From Moraxella nasovis (lineage in GTDB: Bacteria; Pseudomonadota; Gammaproteobacteria; Pseudomonadales; Moraxellaceae), in contig NZ_CP089976.1 in NCBI RefSeq assembly GCF_022701215.1, positions 900,001 to 932,000 on the forward strand: DNA of 32,000 bases. Direction: 5' to 3'. This document shows, in pieces, positions 3,476 through 25,040 of the stretch; position 1 is the stretch's first letter; each line of letters begins with the position of its first letter. The notes beneath the pieces were generated by a model. That model saw nothing but the letters and a program-made list of their open reading frames with translations, did not search any database and had not been told where the DNA came from. The translations under genes were made by a program, and so were the position numbers.

Positions 3476-3510
3476 CGCTTTACTTTATAAAATTAAATCA
3501 AATTAACGTA

Positions 3511-4531: not shown

Positions 4532-4560
4532 TTGAGTGCATGCCAAAGCCATGCACTCAA
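4532..4560 (-). other. Perfect 11-bp stem / 7-nt loop hairpin in the sdhA-sdhB intercistronic spacer
   Basis: TTGAGTGCATG (4532-4542) and CATGCACTCAA (4550-4560) are exact reverse complements. The hairpin sits between the sdhA stop (4576) and the sdhB SD/start (4514). Confidence 0.6.
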
Positions 4561-4575
4561 AATTTATTTGACAAA

Positions 4576-6423
4576 TTAGAACGTACGAACACGTGGCTCG
4601 CAATACTCAACTGTAAGTGGTGACTTACGCACAGGCTTATAGATGATACGGTTACCTTCTGAGTACCATAAAGTGTGCTTCATCCACTCATGGTCATTAC
4701 GTCCCAGTGGTGCATATTCATCCGTCTCATCACGCTCATAATCAAGCACACTGTGTGCTCCACGGCATTCGTGACGTAGGGCAGCTGATAGCATGGTCGC
4801 CTTAGCAACTTCATAAAGATTTGCTACTTCTAGTGCTTCAATACGAGCTGTGTTAAATACAGCTGACTTGTCTTGTAGATGAATGTTATTTACTTTATCA
4901 GCCAACGCCAAAATCTTCTCACGACCTTCATCCATCAACGCTTGGGTGCGAAATACGCCAGCGTGGGCTTGCATGACTTCACGGATTTCATCTGCCACGT
5001 CTTGGGCGTTGTAGCCGTCAGTTGAATTTTGCAGTTTATCAAGGCGGGCTTGAGTAAAGTCAAGCACACGTGGGTTCATTGGCTTATAGGTGTGGTCATT
5101 TTGGTGGAATTCATCAATGATGTGCTGACCTGCCGCACGACCAAATACCACTAAATCAAGTAGTGAGTTCGTACCCAAGCGATTAGCACCATGCACAGAT
5201 ACGCACGCACATTCGCCGATGGCATACAGACCTTTCACCACACGACCTTCGGTGTATAGTCCTTGCTCATCTACATTACCATCAAGCACAGGCACGGTTA
5301 CTTGCCCATGGATATTGGTTGGAATGCCGCCCATCATATAGTGAATGGTTGGCACAACTGGCACAGGCTCTTTGGTGATGTCCACATTGGCAAAGTTATG
5401 GCTAATCTCAAACACCGATGGCAGACGCTTCATAATGCCTTCATGCCCTAGATGCGTCATGTCCATCACGATATAATCGCCGTTAGGACCACAGCCACGG
5501 CCTTCTTTGATTTCTTGGTCCATAGAACGAGAAACGAAATCTCGTGGGGCTAAGTCTTTTAAGGTGGGGGCATAACGCTCCATAAAGGCTTCGCCATTTT
5601 TATTACGTAAAATCGCCCCTTCGCCACGACAGCCTTCGGTCAATAGTACGCCTGCCCCTGCCACGCCTGTTGGGTGAAATTGCCAAAACTCCATGTCTTG
5701 TAGCGGAATGCCTGCACGCACTGCCATACCCAGACCATCGCCTGTATTGATATAAGCGTTGGTAGATGCTTTAAAGATACGCCCTGCCCCACCTGTAGCA
5801 AGCACGGTGGTTGGTGCTTGGAATACTGATATATTGCCTGTCTCTTGGTCAAGTGCAATTACGCCATTAATATTGCCGTCTGCATCTTTGATTAAATCAA
5901 GAGCAATCCATTCCACAAAAAACTGCGTGCCTTTTTCAAGGTTTTTTTGGTACAGCGTGTGAAGTAGGGCGTGTCCTGTACGGTCAGCTGCCGCACACGC
6001 ACGTGGTACAGGTTTTTCGCCATAGTTGGCAGAGTGTCCGCCAAATGGACGCTGATAAATCGTACCATCAGCGTTACGGTCAAAAGGCATGCCCATGTGT
6101 TCTAGCTCATAGACCACTTTTGGTGCTTCACGGCACATGTACTCAATGGCATCTTGGTCACCCAGCCAGTCAGAGCCTTTGACCGTGTCATAAAAGTGAA
6201 AGTGCCAGTTGTCTTCGCTCATGTTGCCAAGACTTGCACCGATACCACCTTGGGCTGCAACCGTATGGCTGCGAGTTGGGAAAACTTTGGTCAATACCGC
6301 AACCTTCATACCGCCTTCAACCAACTGCAATGATGCACGCATACCTGAACCACCGCCACCAACGATGACAGCGTCAAAATTTAAGGTAGGAATGTTATTA
6401 ATTTTTTCTTCTAATAAAGCCAT
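4576..6423 (-). CDS. sdhA: Succinate dehydrogenase flavoprotein subunit
   Basis: 615 aa. N-terminal FAD fold DAVIVGGGGSGMRA, the RSHTVAAQGG covalent-FAD histidine region and the HPTG / RGEG motifs are present. Confidence 0.96.
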   Translation of the reverse strand: MALLEEKINNIPTLNFDAVIVGGGGSGMRASLQLVEGGMKVAVLTKVFPTRSHTVAAQGGIGASLGNMSEDNWHFHFYDTVKGSDWLGDQDAIEYMCREAPKVVYELEHMGMPFDRNADGTIYQRPFGGHSANYGEKPVPRACAAADRTGHALLHTLYQKNLEKGTQFFVEWIALDLIKDADGNINGVIALDQETGNISVFQAPTTVLATGGAGRIFKASTNAYINTGDGLGMAVRAGIPLQDMEFWQFHPTGVAGAGVLLTEGCRGEGAILRNKNGEAFMERYAPTLKDLAPRDFVSRSMDQEIKEGRGCGPNGDYIVMDMTHLGHEGIMKRLPSVFEISHNFANVDITKEPVPVVPTIHYMMGGIPTNIHGQVTVPVLDGNVDEQGLYTEGRVVKGLYAIGECACVSVHGANRLGTNSLLDLVVFGRAAGQHIIDEFHQNDHTYKPMNPRVLDFTQARLDKLQNSTDGYNAQDVADEIREVMQAHAGVFRTQALMDEGREKILALADKVNNIHLQDKSAVFNTARIEALEVANLYEVAKATMLSAALRHECRGAHSVLDYERDETDEYAPLGRNDHEWMKHTLWYSEGNRIIYKPVRKSPLTVEYCEPRVRTF

Positions 6424-7827: not shown

Positions 7828-9105
7828 ATGTCAAAACAAGTGAAATTAGTCGTTGACGGCACAGAATATGAAATGCCAGTATTAGAAAGCTCGCTTGGCC
7901 GTCCTGTTCTAGACATCAGTGCGGTCGCTAAAGCAGGTCTATGGAGCTATGATCCAGGCTTTATGGCAACTGCCCCTGTCGAATCTGCACTAACCTACAT
8001 CGATGGCGAAAAAGGCGAGCTACTACACCGTGGCTATGCCATTGACGACTTAGCCGACAACGCTGATTATTTAGAAGTTTGTTATGCTCTTCTTTATGGT
8101 GATCTACCAACAAAAGAACAAAAAGAAAAATTCTATGCACGCATTGATGAGCATATGGCGGTTCATGACCAACTACGCAAATTCTTTGAAGGTTTCCGTC
8201 GTGATGCCCACCCAATGGCAATTATGGTTGGTGTATCAGGTGCATTATCAGCATTCTACCACAACCATCTAGACATCTCTGATCCGAATCATCGTGATGA
8301 TACAGCAGTAGATCTAATCGCTAAGATGCCAACGCTTGCTGCAATGAGCTATAAATACTCTATCGGAGAGCCGTTCGTATATCCACGCAAAGACTTCAGC
8401 TATGCTGAAAACTTCCTATACATGATGTTTTCAACACCTGGCGATGTAAATTATAAGCCAAACCCAGTACTGGTTAAGGCGATGGATAAAATCTTTACTT
8501 TGCACGCTGACCACGAACAAAACGCTTCAACTTCTACCGTTCGTCTAGCTGGCTCAACAGGTGCTAACCCATATGCGTGTATCGCAGCAGGTATCGTAGC
8601 CCTATGGGGACCATCTCACGGTGGTGCTAACGAAGCGGTACTAACCATGCTTGATGAGATCGGCTCAGTTGAGAATGTCGCCCCATTCATGGAAAAAGTA
8701 AAAACCAAAGAAGCTAAGCTTATGGGCTTTGGCCACCGTGTGTACAAGAACTTCGACCCACGTGCTAAAGTTATGAAAGAGACTTGTGATGAGGTTTTAG
8801 GCGCTCTTGGTATTAACGATCCTAAGTTACAGCTTGCTATGGAGCTTGAGAAGATTGCTCTATCTGATCAATACTTCATCGATCGTAAGCTATATCCGAA
8901 TGTGGATTTCTACTCTGGCATCATTCTAAAAGCAATCGGTATCCCAACATCTATGTTTACCGTAATCTTTGCCCTAGCACGTACAGCAGGCTGGATTGCT
9001 CACTGGACAGAAATGCACTCAGAACCATTTAAAATCGGTCGTCCACGTCAGCGTTATATTGGCGAAAAACACCGTGAATTTGTTAAAATTGAAGACCGTA
9101 AATAA
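7828..9105 (+). CDS. gltA: Citrate synthase (type II, hexameric class)
   Basis: [20 protein letters not shown]... with [14 protein letters not shown] and [11 protein letters not shown] catalytic motifs. The start at 7828 is preceded by AGAGG. The track TTG extension from 7789 is rejected. Confidence 0.96.
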
Positions 9106-9116
9106 TCCCATTAAAC

Positions 9117-9146
9117 ATCCCCAAGCCTGTCTTGGGGATTTTTTTA
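9117..9146 (+). terminator. gltA rho-independent terminator
   Basis: ATCCCCAAG / CTTGGGGAT stem with loop CCTGT, followed by TTTTTTT. Confidence 0.8.
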
Positions 9147-9153
9147 GCTTAAT

Positions 9154-9184
9154 AAAAAGCCAAACTTATAAAGTTTGGCTTTTT
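9154..9184. terminator. Bidirectional terminator between convergent gltA and tex
   Basis: AAAAAGCCAAACTT-ATA-AAGTTTGGCTTTTT: a perfect 14-bp palindromic stem with an A-tract and a T-tract. Confidence 0.8.
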
Positions 9185-9208
9185 TGGCTTGGGTGGGTAG
9201 ATAAGCAT

Positions 9209-11566
9209 TTATAACCCTGCTTGCTTTAACAAAGCACCAAAGCTACCCGTTTTATGGGTACTGCTACCTTTGGCAGACTTAGCACTTTTCTTCTGTAAAG
9301 ACTTAGGATAAGACGACTTTTTGGATTTACCGTCAGACTGCTCTTGCTTGGTAGATTTTTTCGGTTCTGATTTCATGCTAAATCCGATACGACCACGCTT
9401 TTCGTCCACGACAATTACACGAACCTTTATGATGTCTTGCGGCTTAACGATGCTTGCAGGATTATCCACGAAACCATCTGACATCTCAGAAATATGCACC
9501 AAGCCGTCTTGATGTACGCCCACATCCACAAAACAGCCGAACGCTGTAACATTCGTTACCACGCCCTCTAGCACCATGCCAACCTTTAAATCCTTAATAG
9601 AATTTACATCATCGCTAAAATTCGCTGTGCGAAACTCGCCACGAGGGTCGTGAGCGGGCTTGGCAAGCTCACAAAGCACCGTAGATAGCTGACTAAAATC
9701 ATCTAAGTCTTTATTTAAAGACATGGCTACCTGTTCATTACCAAGCACCTCATTTAAAGTTTTACCTGATTTTAATAAAATCTCATGAACCAAACCATAA
9801 CTTTCTGGGTGTACGCCAGTAGCGTCTAATGGTTCTGTGCCGTCCTTAATTCGCAAAAATCCTGCCGCTTGCTCAAACGTCTTTACGCCAAGTCGTGGAA
9901 CACGTTTTAGCTCTTCACGATTCTTAAATTCACCATTTGCACGGCGGTATTCTACAATCTGATGGGCAACGTTCTTATTTAACCCAGCAATGTGCGCCAA
10001 AATAGCAGGGCTTGCAGTGTTTACATCTACGCCGACCGCATTCACGCAATCTTCTGTTACTTTATCCAAACTGCTTTCAAGCTCAACTTGGTTCACATCA
10101 TGCTGATACTGCCCCACTCCGATCGCTTTTGGCTCAACCTTAACCAACTCAGACAATGGGTCTTGAAGTCGTCTAGCGATAGACACCGCTCCACGCACGG
10201 ACACATCAAGATCTGAAAGCTCATTACTTGCAAGCTCGCTGGCAGAATATACTGACGCACCCGCCTCTGAAATCACCACCGCCTTGGCGGATAAACCATG
10301 CTCTTCAATAATGGATTTGACAAGGCTTTCTGACTCACGGCTTGCTGTGCCATTACCAATAGCCACAAGCTCTACACCATAATCAGTAATTAAGTTTTTA
10401 ATGATGACTTTTGCTTCATCTAACTTCTTATAAGGCTCAAATGGATAAGCTGTATCTGTCGCCAGTACATCACCTGTGGCACTTATGACCGCCATTTTTA
10501 CACCATGACGAATGCCAGGATCGACCCCTAAAATCACTTTACGGCCTGCTGGAGATGCCATCAGCAAATGCTTAAGATTCTCAGCAAACACACCGATAGC
10601 ATCTGTCTCTGCCATGATACGTCTTTCAGTTAGCAGGCGATGCTCAATCTGTGTACGCCATTTGGTTGACCATAATTTCTCGGCAGTGCTTGCCAAAAAC
10701 TCGCCATTAGCAGCTGATTTATCTATATTAAAATGCTTTAAAATCATCTCAATAAACGGCTCATCTTCGCCATCAACGCTTAGCACCAGTACATTTTGTT
10801 GGCGACCACGCAACATAGCAAGTAAACGATGATTAGACAGCTTAGCAAATGGCTCACTGTGCTCAAAATAATCTTTAAACTTCTCGCCTGCCTCTCGCTT
10901 TTCTTCGCCGACAAGCTCGCTTTTAATGACTGCTGTCTGATTAAATCCTAGACGCACCGCATCTAACAAATCCAAAGACTGAGCCCATTCATCTAAAATA
11001 ATTGCCTGAACGCCTAAAAGCTGCTTATCATAATCATGAAAGTCCGCCTCAAAACTCTCACCTGTCTCATCGGTTAGTGTATCAGGGCAACTAAAGCCAT
11101 CTAATGCGATTTTTGGATCTGTACCTGACAGCACCGCCTGAGCGATGGGCAATAGCCCTGCTAATTTTGCACGGCTTGCGACAGAGCGACGACGTGGACG
11201 ATACGGCTGGTAAATTTCTTCTAGTTCAAGCTTGCTTGTGGCAGCCTCGATACGCTTACCAAGATCTTCTGTGTAGGCGTTTTGAGTTTTTAATAAATCA
11301 ATAATCTTTAGGCGACGAGCGGCAATCTCTCTTTCATACACTAAGTCTTTTTCTAGGCTACGCAATAACGCATCATCTAAACCGCCCGTCTTCTCCTTAC
11401 GGTAACGTGCAATAAATGGCACACTTGCTCCATCGTCTAAAAGTTCAGCAAAAGCGATAACTTGTGCTTTTTTTACGTTATTTTTCTTAGCAAGTTTATC
11501 AAAAATTATCATTTGGTCAATGGCGTTTTCGCTGGTACTTGGTGAATCGGTGCTAATCTGGATCAT
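9209..11566 (-). CDS. tex: Tex-like transcription accessory protein (YqgF/RuvX-like, HhH and C-terminal S1 domains) with a Lys/Ser-rich tail
   Basis: 785 aa. It has the canonical Tex N-terminus (...LLDDGASVPFIARYRKE.TGGLDD), the YqgF-like block (ILGVDPGIRHGVKMAVI) and an S1 domain (VGMVLEGVVTNVTAFGCFVDVGVHQDGLVHISE). Confidence 0.93.
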   Translation of the reverse strand: MIQISTDSPSTSENAIDQMIIFDKLAKKNNVKKAQVIAFAELLDDGASVPFIARYRKEKTGGLDDALLRSLEKDLVYEREIAARRLKIIDLLKTQNAYTEDLGKRIEAATSKLELEEIYQPYRPRRRSVASRAKLAGLLPIAQAVLSGTDPKIALDGFSCPDTLTDETGESFEADFHDYDKQLLGVQAIILDEWAQSLDLLDAVRLGFNQTAVIKSELVGEEKREAGEKFKDYFEHSEPFAKLSNHRLLAMLRGRQQNVLVLSVDGEDEPFIEMILKHFNIDKSAANGEFLASTAEKLWSTKWRTQIEHRLLTERRIMAETDAIGVFAENLKHLLMASPAGRKVILGVDPGIRHGVKMAVISATGDVLATDTAYPFEPYKKLDEAKVIIKNLITDYGVELVAIGNGTASRESESLVKSIIEEHGLSAKAVVISEAGASVYSASELASNELSDLDVSVRGAVSIARRLQDPLSELVKVEPKAIGVGQYQHDVNQVELESSLDKVTEDCVNAVGVDVNTASPAILAHIAGLNKNVAHQIVEYRRANGEFKNREELKRVPRLGVKTFEQAAGFLRIKDGTEPLDATGVHPESYGLVHEILLKSGKTLNEVLGNEQVAMSLNKDLDDFSQLSTVLCELAKPAHDPRGEFRTANFSDDVNSIKDLKVGMVLEGVVTNVTAFGCFVDVGVHQDGLVHISEMSDGFVDNPASIVKPQDIIKVRVIVVDEKRGRIGFSMKSEPKKSTKQEQSDGKSKKSSYPKSLQKKSAKSAKGSSTHKTGSFGALLKQAGL

Positions 11567-11909
11567 AAAAACTCTTTGTTTAAGGTGTGCCGATTATCGT
11601 GCATATTTGGACAGCTTTTATAGACTATACACTTAAAAATCGGCACACTGAGTAGATTTTGGGCGTGTGATAAATATTTCACACGTTTTAGCTAAAATGT
11701 GGGAATTGCCACAAAAACCTTATCATTATAGCAAGTTTTTAGCCAAACACCAAAACCAATCCGCTTTACCAAAAATACACAAAAAATGGCAGATTTTTTC
11801 ATTTTTTCACTAAAAAAGCATGGTATGATAGGGTAATTTAGATAAAGCAGTTACATTTTTTTGTGCAATGTTGTACACTAATCATAAGCTCACTGACGAA
11901 GGATTTCTT

Positions 11910-12644
11910 ATGACAGACTATAATGAAAACATCGCCCATCGTATCTTAGTTGTAGATGATGACGCCCGCCTTAGAGCCTTGTTGCAGCGGTTCTTAGAAG
12001 ATGACGGCTTTGTTGTTAGGGTAGCTCATGATGGTAAACAAATGGATAAGCTCATCTCAAGAGAGCTGTTCTCGCTCATCGTGCTAGACTTAATGCTCCC
12101 AGATGAAGACGGTATCGCCATCTGTAAGCGTTTGCGTGCCGAAAATGCCGACATACCTATCATCATGCTCACTGCCAAAGGCTCGGATGCTGACCGCATT
12201 GCTGGGCTTGAAGCTGGTGCAGACGACTATCTGCCTAAGCCGTTCAACCCCAAAGAGTTGCTTGCTCGCATTAAGGCTGTGTTACGTCGCCAAAATCGTG
12301 AACTACCCGGAGCACCAAGCCAGCAAATGGAAGTGGTGGAGTTTGGACCTTGGACACTTGACTTATCCACTCGCACATTAAAGCGTGATGGCAATGTCGT
12401 TACCTTAACAACAGGTGAATTTAGCGTACTAAAAGCATTAGTACAACACCCAAGAGAGCCACTCACTCGAGATAAGCTTATGAACTTAGCTCGTGGGCGT
12501 GAATGGGGGGCGATGGAACGCAGTATTGATGTGCAAGTGTCTCGCCTACGTCGTCTCATCGAAGACAACCCAAGCCAAGCTCGCTACATTCAGACAGTGT
12601 GGGGTGTTGGCTATTGTTTCGTGCCTGATGGTGCCGAAAGCTAA
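11910..12644 (+). CDS. ompR: OmpR-family response regulator, close OmpR orthologue
   Basis: Near-colinear with E. coli OmpR (ILVVDDD.RLRALL.R.L...GF.V; DYLPKPFNP(K/R)ELLARI(K/R)AVLRRQ; LTRDKLMNLARGRE..AMERSIDVQ(V/I)SRLRR; YIQTVWG.GY.FVPDG). The start at 11910 is preceded by AAGGA. Confidence 0.92.
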   Translation: MTDYNENIAHRILVVDDDARLRALLQRFLEDDGFVVRVAHDGKQMDKLISRELFSLIVLDLMLPDEDGIAICKRLRAENADIPIIMLTAKGSDADRIAGLEAGADDYLPKPFNPKELLARIKAVLRRQNRELPGAPSQQMEVVEFGPWTLDLSTRTLKRDGNVVTLTTGEFSVLKALVQHPREPLTRDKLMNLARGREWGAMERSIDVQVSRLRRLIEDNPSQARYIQTVWGVGYCFVPDGAES

Positions 12645-22121: not shown

Positions 22122-22622
22122 ATGCGTCTTACCAATTACAGTGACTACGCTCTGCGTTCGCTCATTTATTTGGCAATCAAGCCTAAAAACCATGAACTTG
22201 CCAACATTAATGACATCGCTGACAGCTACCACATCTCAAAAAGCCACTTAACCAAAATCATCCATCAACTGGGCAAGCTGGGTTATATTGAAAGCGTGCG
22301 TGGTAAAGGCGGTGGCATTCGCCTTGCCAAACACCCAAAACAGATTAACATTGGCACACTCATTCGCCATACTGAAAGCGATTTTTATATCCTAGACTGC
22401 CTAGATGACAGCTCTGATACCCCATCAAAAAAAACGCCTCCAGACGTCATACCCAGTCTTGAAATCAGCACAGCAGAAGTAACAAGCAGCTGTGTTATCT
22501 CACCTGTATGCCAGCTAAAAGGCGTGTTTAGTAAGGCGATGCTTGCTTTTATTACGGTGCTAGATGACTACACACTTGCTGACGTCATCACCAATGCCGA
22601 TGAACTGCTTGAGCATTTATAA
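22122..22622 (+). CDS. Rrf2-family transcriptional regulator (NsrR/IscR-like, three-Cys cluster ligand set) with an insertion of roughly 25 aa in the Cys loop
   Basis: The N-terminal wHTH MRLTNYSDYALRSLIYLA...ISKSHLTKIIHQLGKLGYIESVRGKGGGIRLAK parallels NsrR. Cys ligands lie at LDC...SSCVISPVCQLK, against NsrR VNCSSEFCHITPACRLK. Confidence 0.85.
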   Translation: MRLTNYSDYALRSLIYLAIKPKNHELANINDIADSYHISKSHLTKIIHQLGKLGYIESVRGKGGGIRLAKHPKQINIGTLIRHTESDFYILDCLDDSSDTPSKKTPPDVIPSLEISTAEVTSSCVISPVCQLKGVFSKAMLAFITVLDDYTLADVITNADELLEHL

Positions 22623-22624
22623 TT

Positions 22625-22692
22625 TGTAAGCCAAATCTTACAAACATTGACGATTTTTGCGTCTTTTCTTATTCAGCATAATTTAGGATAAT
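22625..22692 (+). promoter_or_regulatory. GacA/UvrY-type upstream activating box plus -10 for sRNA copy 1
   Basis: TGTAAG-CCAAAT-CTTACA (22625-22642) matches the published GacA box consensus TGTAAGN6CTTACA perfectly. -10 is GATAAT (22687-22692). The box centre lies about 65 nt upstream of the predicted start. Confidence 0.75.
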
Positions 22693-22698
22693 ACACAC

Positions 22699-22848
22699 AC
22701 AGCAAAGGAAATGGATGGTTTTAAGGATTGATAAAATTTGCTGTTGTTTCTCAAGGATTGAGAAAGCTTTGATGGATTAAGCTAGGATACCGCAAGGTAA
22801 TAAACGTTAAGATAAAGCCACAGATTTCGGTCTGTGGCTTTGTTTTTT
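22699..22848 (+). ncRNA. Csr/Rsm-family (RsmX/Y/Z- or CsrB-like) CsrA-sequestering sRNA, copy 1; 5' end predicted to within about 5 nt
   Basis: Six GGA motifs in about 90 nt, including TTTCTC-AAGGATT-GAGAAA (22747-22765) and GCTT-TGATGGATT-AAGC (22766-22782). Three more lie inside the CAGCAAA(22700-06)/TTTGCTG(22737-43) hairpin. The terminator is AAAGCCACAGA-TTTCGG-TCTGTGGCTTT followed by GTTTTTT (22814-22848). No ORF. Confidence 0.75.
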
Positions 22849-22873
22849 ATGAATTTGTTTTGTTGTTCAGCTT

Positions 22874-22941
22874 TGTAAGCCAAATCTTACAAACATTGAC
22901 GATTTTTGCGTCTTTTCTTATTCAGCATAATTTAGGATAAT
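22874..22941 (+). promoter_or_regulatory. GacA/UvrY-type box plus -10 for sRNA copy 2
   Basis: Identical to copy 1: TGTAAGCCAAATCTTACA at 22874-22891 and GATAAT at 22936-22941. Confidence 0.75.
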
Positions 22942-22947
22942 ACACAC

Positions 22948-23097
22948 ACAGCAAAGGAAATGGATGGTTTTAAGGATTGATAAAATTTGCTGTTGTTTCT
23001 CAAGGATTGAGAAAGCTTTGATGGATTAAGCTAGGATACCGCAAGGTAATAAACGTTAAGATAAAGCCACAGATTTCGGTCTGTGGCTTTGTTCTTT
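22948..23097 (+). ncRNA. Csr/Rsm-family sRNA, copy 2 (body identical to copy 1; terminator T-tract interrupted, TTCTTT)
   Basis: Same GGA hairpins as copy 1, shifted by 249 nt. Terminator stem at 23063-23090. Confidence 0.75.
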
Positions 23098-23122
23098 ATG
23101 AATTTGTTTTATTGTTCAGCTT

Positions 23123-23190
23123 TGTAAGCCAAATCTTACAAACATTGACGATTTTTACACCTTTTCATACGATGGTGATTTTGGCATAAT
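23123..23190 (+). promoter_or_regulatory. GacA/UvrY-type box plus -10 for the divergent third sRNA
   Basis: TGTAAGCCAAATCTTACA at 23123-23140. -10 is CATAAT at 23185-23190, at exactly the same offset as in copies 1 and 2. Confidence 0.7.
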
Positions 23191-23196
23191 GCACTC

Positions 23197-23325
23197 ATAC
23201 AGCAAGGATTAGGCAGATGGACTGCCACACGGAATATAGCTGTAATCATGGAAGAGCTTAGAAACGCATGACGCTCTATCACAAACCGTAAACTTGCTCC
23301 TTTGGTTTACGGTTTGTTATTTTTT
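23197..23325 (+). ncRNA. Third, sequence-divergent Csr/Rsm-family sRNA
   Basis: Four GGA motifs, including GGCAG-ATGGA-CTGCC (23212-23226) and AGCT-GTAATCATGGAAG-AGCT (23238-23258). The terminator is AAACCGTAAAC...GTTTACGGTTT (23283-23315) followed by a T-run that overlaps the yigZ stop codon. Confidence 0.65.
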
Positions 23326-23922
23326 GATTGATGGCGTTATTATTTCACCAAAGACACCTAAGCTTTCTTGAAACTGAGCGATTTTTTCATCATCAAGCCG
23401 TGCTGTCAGCATGACTGCTTTGCAATAATCCACCTCTAAAATCTCGCCTTGGACTTGCTCGGTTAAGTACCGCACTTGAGCCTCATCCTTAAAATCACAC
23501 ATAATCTTAACGGTGGATTGTGGTACAAAGACAGCCAAAGACATCTTATCAACAGCCATCTGTGTTGCTGTAGCATAGGCTCGAGTCAGACCGCCCGCAC
23601 CAAGCTTAATACCCCCAAAATACCGCACCACGATGACGCATACATTACCGATGGCTTTATGTTGTAGCACGTTTAAAATAGGTCTACCTGCTGTGCCATT
23701 TGGCTCTCCATCATCATCAAAGCCTGCTGATGTGGTATTATTTGGATCACCAATGATATAGCCGTAGCAGACATGGCGAGCATCTGGATAGGTCTGTCGG
23801 TAGTGTTCCACGTGAAACGTTAATTGGTCACGATTGGTGATGGGGTGAGCAAAAGCAAGAAATTCGCTTTTTTTAATCTCAAAAACAGCCGAGCAAGGTG
23901 CAGATAGGGTTGAATAAGTCAT
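23317..23922 (-). CDS. yigZ: YigZ / IMPACT-family protein (UPF0029)
   Basis: Family signature blocks are present: EIKKS.F.A...P......F........YPDA.H.CY.Y..G........DDGEP.GTAG.PIL.VL......N..V.V.RYFGG.KLG.GGL.RAY. The start is placed at MTYSTLSAP (23922). Confidence 0.85.
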   Translation of the reverse strand: MTYSTLSAPCSAVFEIKKSEFLAFAHPITNRDQLTFHVEHYRQTYPDARHVCYGYIIGDPNNTTSAGFDDDGEPNGTAGRPILNVLQHKAIGNVCVIVVRYFGGIKLGAGGLTRAYATATQMAVDKMSLAVFVPQSTVKIMCDFKDEAQVRYLTEQVQGEILEVDYCKAVMLTARLDDEKIAQFQESLGVFGEIITPSIKK

Positions 23923-24063
23923 ATCAATTAGAATAAATAAAAACATCCCATCATAACACAAACAGCATAATAGTCATCAGATGTCCTTTTGTGAAAATCA
24001 TGTTTATGTTGTCATCATTATGCTATCATAAATTGATAAAAAGTAAATGAAATTTAGGCTTTT

Positions 24064-24516
24064 ATGAATTTATCTAATCAGCATTACCCCACCGCCAAAA
24101 TCATCATATTATATCCGCTATTAGGTGGCGTGGTTGGTGGCGTGCTAAGTTTGCCTTATTTTCTTTTTAATCTTACAGTTAATACACAAGATGGCTATTT
24201 TCTTGTGATTTTTGAAATGATATTTTTGGTACTGATTTTTTCCTTTGTGGTAGGCTTGTTGCCTGCGTTATTGGCAGGAATAATGATGGTAATTTTTAAA
24301 ATCCATGTAGGTAATTTTAAAAGTTATTTTAAGGCTTTTGTTATCGGCTTTGTGGCGGTGGTGCTGGCTTATTTGGGATTGATGCTTTTGACGGTTTTGA
24401 GTGGGGCTGATTGGTCGGACTGGTCAGCCAAAAAAGAAGTTACAACGCTTTGGTTTGCACTACTTGGCGGATTATCATCTGTGGTATTGGCAAGGTTATT
24501 TGTACCAAAGCGTTAG
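24064..24516 (+). CDS. Hypothetical 4-TM membrane protein (paralogue A)
   Basis: 150 aa and hydrophobic. It is a clear paralogue of the next gene: YPTAKIIILYPLLGGVVGG vs YPTIKVILGYALLGGLLG, and LLGGLSSVVLARLFVPK vs LIGGIASVALAKFLLPK. Confidence 0.6.
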   Translation: MNLSNQHYPTAKIIILYPLLGGVVGGVLSLPYFLFNLTVNTQDGYFLVIFEMIFLVLIFSFVVGLLPALLAGIMMVIFKIHVGNFKSYFKAFVIGFVAVVLAYLGLMLLTVLSGADWSDWSAKKEVTTLWFALLGGLSSVVLARLFVPKR

Positions 24517-24578
24517 GGCTTGCTAATTTGGTTCATGGTGTTTTAAGTTATAAATTAGGAGCTTCAACAAGGATTTTT

Positions 24579-25040
24579 ATGAAAAAATATCCCACCATAA
24601 AAGTCATTCTAGGTTATGCGTTATTAGGCGGATTATTAGGAAGTTTGCCGTTTGTATGGTTGCTTTTATTTTGGTTGTTTTTCTTGGGTGATGATTGGAA
24701 TGTTTTATTTGCGGTGGTGGAGGCTGCTGTCATGTTTGGCACCGCACCTGCTTTCTTGACAGGATTGACGCTATCTTTGACAAAAACAAGAATTAAGAAA
24801 GATTCTGATTACTGGCGAATATTTACCATTGGTTTTGTGATGACATTTTTGTGCTTTTTAATTACTGGGATATTTGACCTATTAATGGATGGTATGGATG
24901 TGTATTATGTTATTAAAAGAAGTGTATTTGGATTTTTGTTTTTTGGGATTTTTGGGCTGATTGGTGGTATAGCATCCGTGGCATTAGCCAAATTTTTACT
25001 CCCCAAATCTGCTTGCCCCACCAACCAAAGCATGCGATAA
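24579..25040 (+). CDS. Hypothetical 4-TM membrane protein (paralogue B)
   Basis: The start at 24579 (MKKYPTIKV) is preceded by AAGGA. The track N-terminal extension from 24411 overlaps paralogue A and is rejected. Confidence 0.6.
   Translation: MKKYPTIKVILGYALLGGLLGSLPFVWLLLFWLFFLGDDWNVLFAVVEAAVMFGTAPAFLTGLTLSLTKTRIKKDSDYWRIFTIGFVMTFLCFLITGIFDLLMDGMDVYYVIKRSVFGFLFFGIFGLIGGIASVALAKFLLPKSACPTNQSMR

Follow-up and report, generated by a model that had tools for sequence, protein, structure and literature searches.

Introduction

Small RNAs (sRNAs) acting as CsrA/RsmA sponges are defined by multiple exposed A(N)GGA motifs, and the palindrome TGTAAG-N6-CTTACA found before rsm and csr genes is the activating site of GacA/UvrY-type regulators (PMC7911923, PMC12716042, PMC1488887). 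Such genes may come in several copies. The tandem rsmX-1/rsmX-2 genes of Pseudomonas are GacA dependent and specify RNAs of about 110 nt with 6 GGA each (PMC7911923), and csrB1-3 arrays, with several copies in one intergenic region, were predicted in Photobacterium profundum and Colwellia (Kulkarni et al. 2006, PMC1488887). Among the Moraxellaceae, the same study predicted rsmX/Y/Z in Acinetobacter sp. ADP1, and rsmY (plus rsmX and rsmZ) in Psychrobacter arcticus (PMC1488887). The csrA gene is annotated in Moraxella catarrhalis BBH18 (PMC9409589), and a Moraxellaceae clade is present among the BarA/GacS orthologues (PMC8639471). We report here on a 32,000-nucleotide stretch of the Moraxella nasovis genome (contig NZ_CP089976.1, positions 900,001 to 932,000, hereafter the window), in which one intergenic region carries three head-to-tail units that look like sRNA genes of this kind.

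Moraxella species include M. catarrhalis, a pathogen of humans, and M. bovis and M. bovoculi, pathogens of livestock. The initial annotation of the window, made from the sequence alone, knew of no such RNAs in this lineage. In view of the 2006 predictions this was too broad for the family, and it stands for the genus: no description of Rsm/Csr RNAs of genus Moraxella was found in the searchable literature.

Results

Three units with GacA-type boxes and a fixed promoter spacing

The array extends over positions 22623-23326 of the window, between the stop of an Rrf2-family gene (22622) and that of a yigZ-like gene (23317). From its sequence we consider, with a probability of roughly 0.8, that it consists of three Rsm/Csr-type sRNA genes, which would be driven by a GacA-type activator and whose products would titrate CsrA. 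Kulkarni et al. (2006, PMC1488887) gave five defining sequence criteria for CsrA-regulating sRNAs: an intergenic location, an upstream GacA/UvrY-type site, the density of the motifs, their exposure, and a terminator. All five properties were found here. The region is intergenic, and no + strand open reading frame (ORF) of at least 30 amino acids appears in the ORF list for 22623-23316, as had been claimed. A perfect box stands ahead of each unit, and the remaining three properties are described below. The proposal of GacA-box-driven, GGA-rich genes made in the initial annotation is thus supported by these five properties, and also by the fixed spacing, the covariation and the recovery of the units with a covariance model. 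The promoter features are as follows.

22625 to 22642, + strand: unit 1 putative GacA/UvrY-type upstream activating box, TGTAAGCCAAATCTTACA, perfect TGTAAG-N6-CTTACA match
22643 to 22686, + strand: unit 1 conserved linker from box to -10, containing CGATTTTTGCGTCTTTTCTTA (consensus of 17 distinct promoter regions, CGAttTTtGCGTaTTTTCtTA)
22687 to 22692, + strand: unit 1 -10 hexamer GATAAT, at a position matching the family-wide CATAAT
22874 to 22891, + strand: unit 2 putative GacA-type box, TGTAAGCCAAATCTTACA, perfect match
22936 to 22941, + strand: unit 2 -10 hexamer GATAAT (sequence inspection)
23123 to 23140, + strand: unit 3 putative GacA-type box, TGTAAGCCAAATCTTACA, perfect match
23185 to 23190, + strand: unit 3 -10 hexamer CATAAT with extended TGn, TTGGCATAAT (sequence inspection)

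All three boxes had been predicted and all are present, at 22625, 22874 and 23123, while 100 dinucleotide-preserving shuffles of the window yielded none. The box agrees with the GacA consensus at 12/12 positions. The constant offset announced for the -10 hexamers was likewise recovered: each of the three comes exactly 62 nt after its box begins, and the same spacing exists in M. caviae, M. equi, M. lacunata and two Logan contigs. When 17 distinct promoter regions were compared, the half-sites were conserved and the 6-nt spacer was variable, which is the pattern predicted for a dimeric DNA-binding regulator. The linker also has a consensus, CGAttTTtGCGTaTTTTCtTA, across these regions, and TTTGGCATAAT is likewise conserved. 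The CGAttTTtGCGTaTTTTCtTA motif lies at 22651-22671, 22900-22920 and 23149-23169, is poorer in unit 3, and keeps the same offset in the 17 promoter regions; it may be the site of a second factor or a bend element.

A second -10-like CATAAT is present in units 1 and 2 (22677-22682 and 22926-22931), 10 nt upstream of the conserved hexamer. Its use would move the RNA start upstream by about 10 nt and bring in a seventh GGA (AGGAUAA). Two further candidates were discarded. A near-box with one mismatch at 4612-4629 (TGTAAGTGGTGACTTACG) lies inside a succinate-dehydrogenase flavoprotein-like ORF, is devoid of promoter or RNA features and of any match to the covariance model, and is probably due to chance. 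A GACG...CGUC hairpin in the unit 1 linker was considered as a terminator and rejected, because it is missing from unit 3 and from other species.

The predicted RNA bodies

Tandem Repeats Finder and a repeat finder both gave a period of 249 nt for the array. Unit 1 (22623-22871) and unit 2 (22872-23120) are 99% identical, the only differences being 22845 T/C and 22862 G/A. Unit 3 shares 79% identity with them over the first 77 nt only, that is the box and the promoter, and has a different body. Units 1 and 2 arose by a very recent duplication in tandem, and unit 3 is an older paralogue. The three sRNAs, with their predicted ends, are listed below together with their scores in a search with R1, a covariance model built from 16 Moraxella sequences, the window sequences being left out.

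22699 to 22848, + strand: unit 1 predicted sRNA, about 150 nt, approximate ends (fold z-score -5.15; R1 43.3 bits over 22695-22844)
22948 to 23097, + strand: unit 2 predicted sRNA, a 99% copy of unit 1 (R1 43.3 bits over 22944-23093)
23197 to 23326, + strand: unit 3 predicted sRNA, about 130 nt (R1 49 bits, E 1.9e-11, over 23191-23318)

Our recount of the GGA motifs gave the same figures as the initial annotation, 6, 6 and 4 for units 1, 2 and 3 on the + strand, compared to 0, 0 and 1 on the - strand. The mean of the window is 0.90 GGA per 130 nt, and at least 6 are reached in the 32 kb only by units 1 and 2. Every GGA of the units stands in an A(N)GGA context (22707, 22713, 22725, 22755, 22774 and 22785 in unit 1; 23206, 23219, 23231 and 23250 in unit 3), with an AGGA/ARGGA subset of 4, 4 and 1. 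A mean unpaired probability above 0.5 was computed for 4/6 motifs of unit 1 and 3/4 of unit 3, so that both the density and the exposure expected of CsrA-regulating RNAs (PMC1488887) are found.

Unit 3 has a canonical 5′ domain, which aligns with the genes of M. caviae, M. equi and M. lacunata. It comprises a closing stem, P1 (ACAGC/GCUGU), and a hairpin, P2 (GGCAG-AUGGA-CUGCC). In units 1 and 2, P1 is expanded (ACAGCAAA/UUUGCUGU) around three GGA and is followed by two extra hairpins, one of which, UUUCUCAAGGAUUGAGAAA, has a GGA in its loop. For their 3′ half and terminator (AAAGCCACAGA...), homology to the genes of M. equi, M. lacunata and M. caviae is clear. The three GGA hairpins quoted in the initial annotation all exist where they had been placed. 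Two of them are stable, TTTCTC-AAGGATT-GAGAAA (-5.4 kcal/mol) and GGCAG-ATGGA-CTGCC (-6.3 kcal/mol); the third, GCTT-TGATGGATT-AAGC, is weak (-0.9 kcal/mol) and falls outside the minimum-energy fold.

The strong rho-independent terminators are real features of the three units, with T-runs behind hairpins of -17.2, -17.2 and -18.2 kcal/mol, as expected of this class of RNA (PMC1488887). In unit 1 the hairpin is at 22814-22841. The T-run of unit 2 is broken by the T-to-C difference (T at 22845 in unit 1, C at 23094 in unit 2). The unit 3 terminator (23278-23320) overlaps the yigZ stop codon: its 3′ arm and T-run (23305-23326) cover the stop and last codons of the yigZ-like ORF, which ends at 23317.

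A common 5′ domain with covarying stems

Complete members of the family are 126-154 nt long and contain 4-8 GGA. Their common 5′ domain begins with ACAC(N)CA and P1 (NCAGC/GCUGN′), with AAGGA right after the 5′ strand of P1. It continues with P2, a short hairpin with an A(N)GGA loop, and with a third motif, CAUGGAUGA, ahead of the 3′ strand of P1. More GGA motifs, and the terminator, lie 3′ of this domain. The RNAalifold consensus consists of P1, P2 and the terminator, and two-sided changes keep the pairing in 7 of its 17 pairs. The closing pair of P1 is U-A, A-U, G-C or G-U according to the member, P2 is found as GGC/GCC, GGU/ACC, GGUG/CACC or GGCAG/CUGCC, and the terminator stem covaries across the family. 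Pairing holds in 92.5% of the cells of the 5′ domain, whose covariation score of 0.187 compares with 0.069 in shuffles (0 of 500 as high); the pairing was destroyed when the partner columns were slid. In the 16 members, the probability of being unpaired averages 0.66 for the GGA motifs and 0.44 for the other bases, and 57 of the 85 motifs are exposed.

Over the whole window, R1 retrieved unit 3 with 49 bits and units 1 and 2 with 43.3 bits each (E 6.3e-10). The other matches reached at most 25 bits and were terminators or their reverse strands, including those near 9069-9261, which were discarded as ordinary terminators.

The initial annotation had warned that covariance models might miss these RNAs, and this proved right for Rfam 15. 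At the gathering score, no family of any kind matched the window, and the sole match in 11 related Moraxella loci was a thiamine pyrophosphate (TPP) riboswitch. At E<=10, the region 22500-23450 gave no Rsm/Csr family, only noise (rimP leader, STnc40 and miRNA models, 15-21 bits). The units accordingly fall outside the RsmX/Y/Z and CsrB/C sequence families, of which they appear to be functional analogues.

Relatives at Rrf2 loci and in metagenomes

Related loci were gathered by means of the Rrf2 gene. A single gene built on this plan comes immediately behind Rrf2 in M. caviae (L001, box at 4560), M. equi (L029 and L030, box at 3501) and M. lacunata (L031, box at 3501), and also in the Logan contigs L035 and L033, the sRNA gene of the latter being cut by the contig end. 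The gap between the Rrf2 stop and the box is 2-5 nt in the Rrf2-linked lineages, the exception being M. caviae with about 40 nt. In contig L034 (ENA ERZ27319678), positions 2508-2600 after the Rrf2 stop hold only a right half-site CTTACA and the linker motif with part of the promoter, and the RNA body is gone; the sRNA gene has thus been lost there, and what is left looks like a decayed copy. In M. marmotae (L032), norB occupies the place of the sRNA gene after Rrf2. Neither a box nor an R1 match was found at the Rrf2 loci of Psychrobacter, Faucicola and M. osloensis.

Relatives in metagenomes were obtained by a pattern scan of JGI contigs. The pattern covered the -10 and the 5′ end of the RNA, CATAATNCANNCAN{1,2}CAGCAAGGA, and did not include the box. 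A box with 0-2 mismatches was nevertheless present exactly 62 nt upstream in 20 of the 29 matches. In the remaining 9, which are chance matches, the same position showed 7-11 mismatches. Moraxella-like metagenome contigs (about 20) thus carry sRNA genes at other loci, often in several copies per contig: two in L040, 3.8 kb apart; three within 2.7 kb in L050; two each in ODFQ01000003 and ODVI01000003. Ordinary genes lie between the copies of these contigs. From the contigs with 2-3 copies we conclude that Moraxella genomes typically hold several paralogues, much like rsmX, rsmY and rsmZ in Pseudomonas. Among the sequences examined, direct head-to-tail copies were seen only in M. nasovis. One Moraxella-like metagenome contig (L055) also carries a TPP riboswitch (5250-5342, - strand, 69.9 bits), about 1.5 kb from its sRNA gene.

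Taken together, the best reading of these sequences is that of a Moraxella-wide RNA family, absent from Rfam, which would be functionally analogous to RsmX/Y/Z and CsrB/C.

Flanking genes

The genes on either side of the array were correctly named in the initial annotation, since the domain searches returned PF02082 for one and the YigZ/UPF0029 domain for the other.

22122 to 22622, + strand: Rrf2-family (NsrR-like) regulator gene (ORF; Pfam Rrf2 PF02082, E 7.5e-33; product 100% identical to M. nasovis Rrf2 protein P0001)
23317 to 23961, - strand: yigZ-like (UPF0029/IMPACT) gene, convergent, forming the array boundary (ORF and domain search)

The Rrf2 stop codon is at 22620-22622, and the gene has no terminator of its own. 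Box 1 had been described as beginning 3 nt after this stop with no terminator in between; the latter point holds, and the gap is in fact two bases (TT). In M. marmotae, a near-perfect palindrome, AAGATACATTTAAAATATATCTT, lies at 3670-3695 of L032, between the Rrf2 gene and norB (nitric-oxide reductase, 3761). This palindrome next to norB suggests that the Rrf2 orthologue group is NsrR-like. Psychrobacter homologues of Rrf2 bear the JGI name "nitric oxide-sensitive transcriptional repressor". The evidence for an autoregulatory NsrR box upstream of the window Rrf2 gene was unconvincing, and this candidate was dropped.

In M. equi and M. lacunata, a Tex-family gene comes directly after the Rrf2-sRNA pair. 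The M. nasovis one (9209-11566, - strand) is about 11 kb away from the array, which indicates that the locus has been rearranged. Beyond yigZ, two adjacent + strand ORFs (24064-24516 and 24411-25040) encode hydrophobic proteins with no Pfam match and with N-termini that are alike (YPLLGGVVGGVLSLPYF and GYALLGGLLGSLPFVW); the two may represent a tandem pair of paralogous membrane proteins.

csrA loci

Two CsrA protein searches were carried out, seeded with an Acinetobacter-type CsrA and then with a Moraxella sp. CsrA. They returned Moraxellaceae-type CsrA clusters named [Moraxella sp.] (P0212, P0204 and P0155). At the level of genus and family, these clusters, together with the csrA of M. catarrhalis BBH18 (PMC9409589) and the Moraxellaceae clade of BarA/GacS orthologues (PMC8639471), indirectly support the presence of partner genes for the array. 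At the csrA loci of Moraxellaceae-like contigs (L062-L071), the genes stand in the conserved order lysC-csrA-hopJ-rpmB-rpmG, preceded by alaS in those contigs that extend far enough. No sRNA gene was found at the retrieved csrA loci. The CsrA proteins of L062-L071 have a C-terminal extension of 20-30 residues that ends in ...DDDYFNR.

Discussion

A predicted mode of action

If the array works as its sequence predicts, a GacA/UvrY-type response regulator would bind the TGTAAG-N6-CTTACA palindrome, whose centre lies about 66 nt upstream of the putative transcription start, and would activate a promoter in which the -10 is good (extended) and a clear -35 is lacking. The three genes would be promoted and terminated independently, giving RNAs of about 130-150 nt. 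The 4-6 A(N)GGA motifs of each transcript would be presented at three kinds of site: a short hairpin's loop, the internal loop that P1 closes, and single-stranded parts. CsrA dimers would bind these motifs and so be drawn off their messenger RNA (mRNA) targets, and the duplication that gave units 1 and 2 would raise the gene dosage.

A further idea concerns the Rrf2-sRNA junction, which could be functional in itself: the Rrf2 mRNA would end at the sRNA terminator, and its 3′ untranslated region would be a CsrA sponge or be processed into one. Rrf2 is directly followed by the sRNA, with no terminator between them, in M. nasovis, M. caviae, M. equi, M. lacunata and several uncultured relatives, and since the 2-nt gap in M. 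nasovis contains no terminator, read-through from Rrf2 into unit 1 is consistent with the sequence. We hold this proposal to be rather improbable. Were it true, the Csr switch would receive a GacA-independent input (nitrosative or iron-sulfur stress), CsrA would feed back on the Rrf2 transcript, and M. nasovis would have amplified this node to three copies.

Alternative explanations

Several observations count against the proposal of three CsrA-titrating RNAs under GacA-type control. No csrA or gacA was found by tblastn in the window or in the fetched sRNA-bearing loci. The window response regulator at 11868-12644 was rejected as a GacA, being of OmpR type and not of NarL/GacA type. Neither name nor assembly linked any of the retrieved CsrA clusters to M. 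nasovis, M. equi, M. lacunata or M. caviae. Unit 3 has 4 GGA only, one of which is AGGA/ARGGA, and 2 of the 6 motifs of unit 1 are mostly paired in the predicted ensemble. The covariation comes from few independent lineages, most stem positions being invariant, and a simple terminator scan of the window left the three unit terminators unlisted. The lack of an Rfam Rsm/Csr match, finally, makes the relation to the characterised families one of analogy, not homology.

The small number of GGA in unit 3 would also suit RNAs that are real and GacA-controlled, and act mainly by base-pairing with mRNAs (Hfq- or ProQ-type) instead of titrating CsrA. The highly conserved 5′ ACAC(N)CA-NCAGCAAGGA could equally be a seed region, CsrA binding being a prediction. 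We nevertheless find this unlikely: the conserved positions are the GGA motifs themselves, the sequence of the P2 stem varies whereas its loop GGA is kept in most members, GGA is enriched in all paralogues and strongly biased in strand, and the design fits five out of five published CsrA-sponge criteria. Another role for the palindromes, as operators of the adjacent NsrR-like Rrf2 regulator, would place the RNAs in a nitrosative or iron-sulfur stress response rather than in a Gac/Csr circuit. Inverted repeats are indeed the targets of Rrf2 proteins, and the box comes 2-5 nt past the Rrf2 stop in the Rrf2-linked lineages (about 40 nt in M. caviae). However, the same box and spacing occur at loci with no nearby Rrf2 (L040 at 12587, and L050), Psychrobacter and M. 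marmotae retain the Rrf2 gene and have neither box nor RNA, and the NsrR-type palindrome AAGATACATTTAAAATATATCTT upstream of norB in M. marmotae is unrelated to the box, which is identical to the GacA consensus at all 12 positions. We regard this second explanation as very unlikely, and we think equally little of a third, in which the array would be a tandem repeat without function, the remnant of a mobile element or a duplication made in assembly. Units 1 and 2 are, it is true, 99% identical and exactly head to tail, the T-run of unit 2 is interrupted, and the half-box left in L034 demonstrates that the gene can be lost. Yet several species and many metagenome contigs have kept the family, whose promoter, stems and terminator are all preserved, with compensatory changes, and unit 3 is a diverged paralogue. 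As for assembly, units 1 and 2 differ at two positions, so that a simple collapse or expansion does not account for them. Three Rsm/Csr-type sRNA genes thus remain the preferred reading.

Comparison with known systems

The family amounts to about 20 alignable sequences with a defined promoter architecture and a consensus structure, which can be used for a genus-wide annotation of these RNAs. A search for the box could reveal the GacA regulon, and the family helps to design tests of CsrA control over colonisation traits.

Like CsrB and CsrC of the Enterobacteriaceae, which are CsrA sponges activated by BarA/UvrY, the M. nasovis RNAs are predicted from their sequence to be sponges under such control, and in both cases copies can share an intergenic region. 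CsrB and CsrC are larger, about 250-420 nt with up to about 21 motifs (PMC1488887), and their Rfam models do not match the present units. The genes predicted in Acinetobacter ADP1 and P. arcticus, compared here by description only, are also from Moraxellaceae, intergenic and GGA-rich, with a terminator and an rsmY-type upstream site; the Psychrobacter Rrf2 loci gathered here have neither a box nor an R1 match.

Closest in design are RsmX, RsmY and RsmZ of Pseudomonas, which sequester RsmA/RsmE. They share with the Moraxella genes the 18-bp palindromic TGTAAG-N6-CTTACA, RNAs of about 110-150 nt, 4-10 GGA partly in hairpin loops, a rho-independent terminator and redundant paralogues per genome (PMC7911923, PMC12716042). 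They differ in having no detectable sequence or covariance-model similarity to the Moraxella RNAs, which have a 5′ domain of their own (P1 around AAGGA, the GGA-loop hairpin, and CAUGGAUGA) and whose links to GacA and CsrA are predicted ones. The head-to-tail duplication itself recalls the tandem rsmX-1/rsmX-2 genes of P. brassicacearum, P. fluorescens F113 and P. stutzeri, and the multi-copy rsmX of P. syringae, where each copy has its own upstream activating sequence and terminator and the arrangement is read as dosage amplification (PMC7911923). The M. nasovis array differs by its three copies instead of two, by the 99% identity of two of them compared to 75-81%, and by belonging to another genus and another RNA family. 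It is a further example of dosage amplification of sibling sRNAs, and leaves the general view of such systems unchanged. We conclude that the Moraxella genes form a new sequence family, real and well supported, of an already known type of regulator, with a three-copy tandem amplification in M. nasovis.

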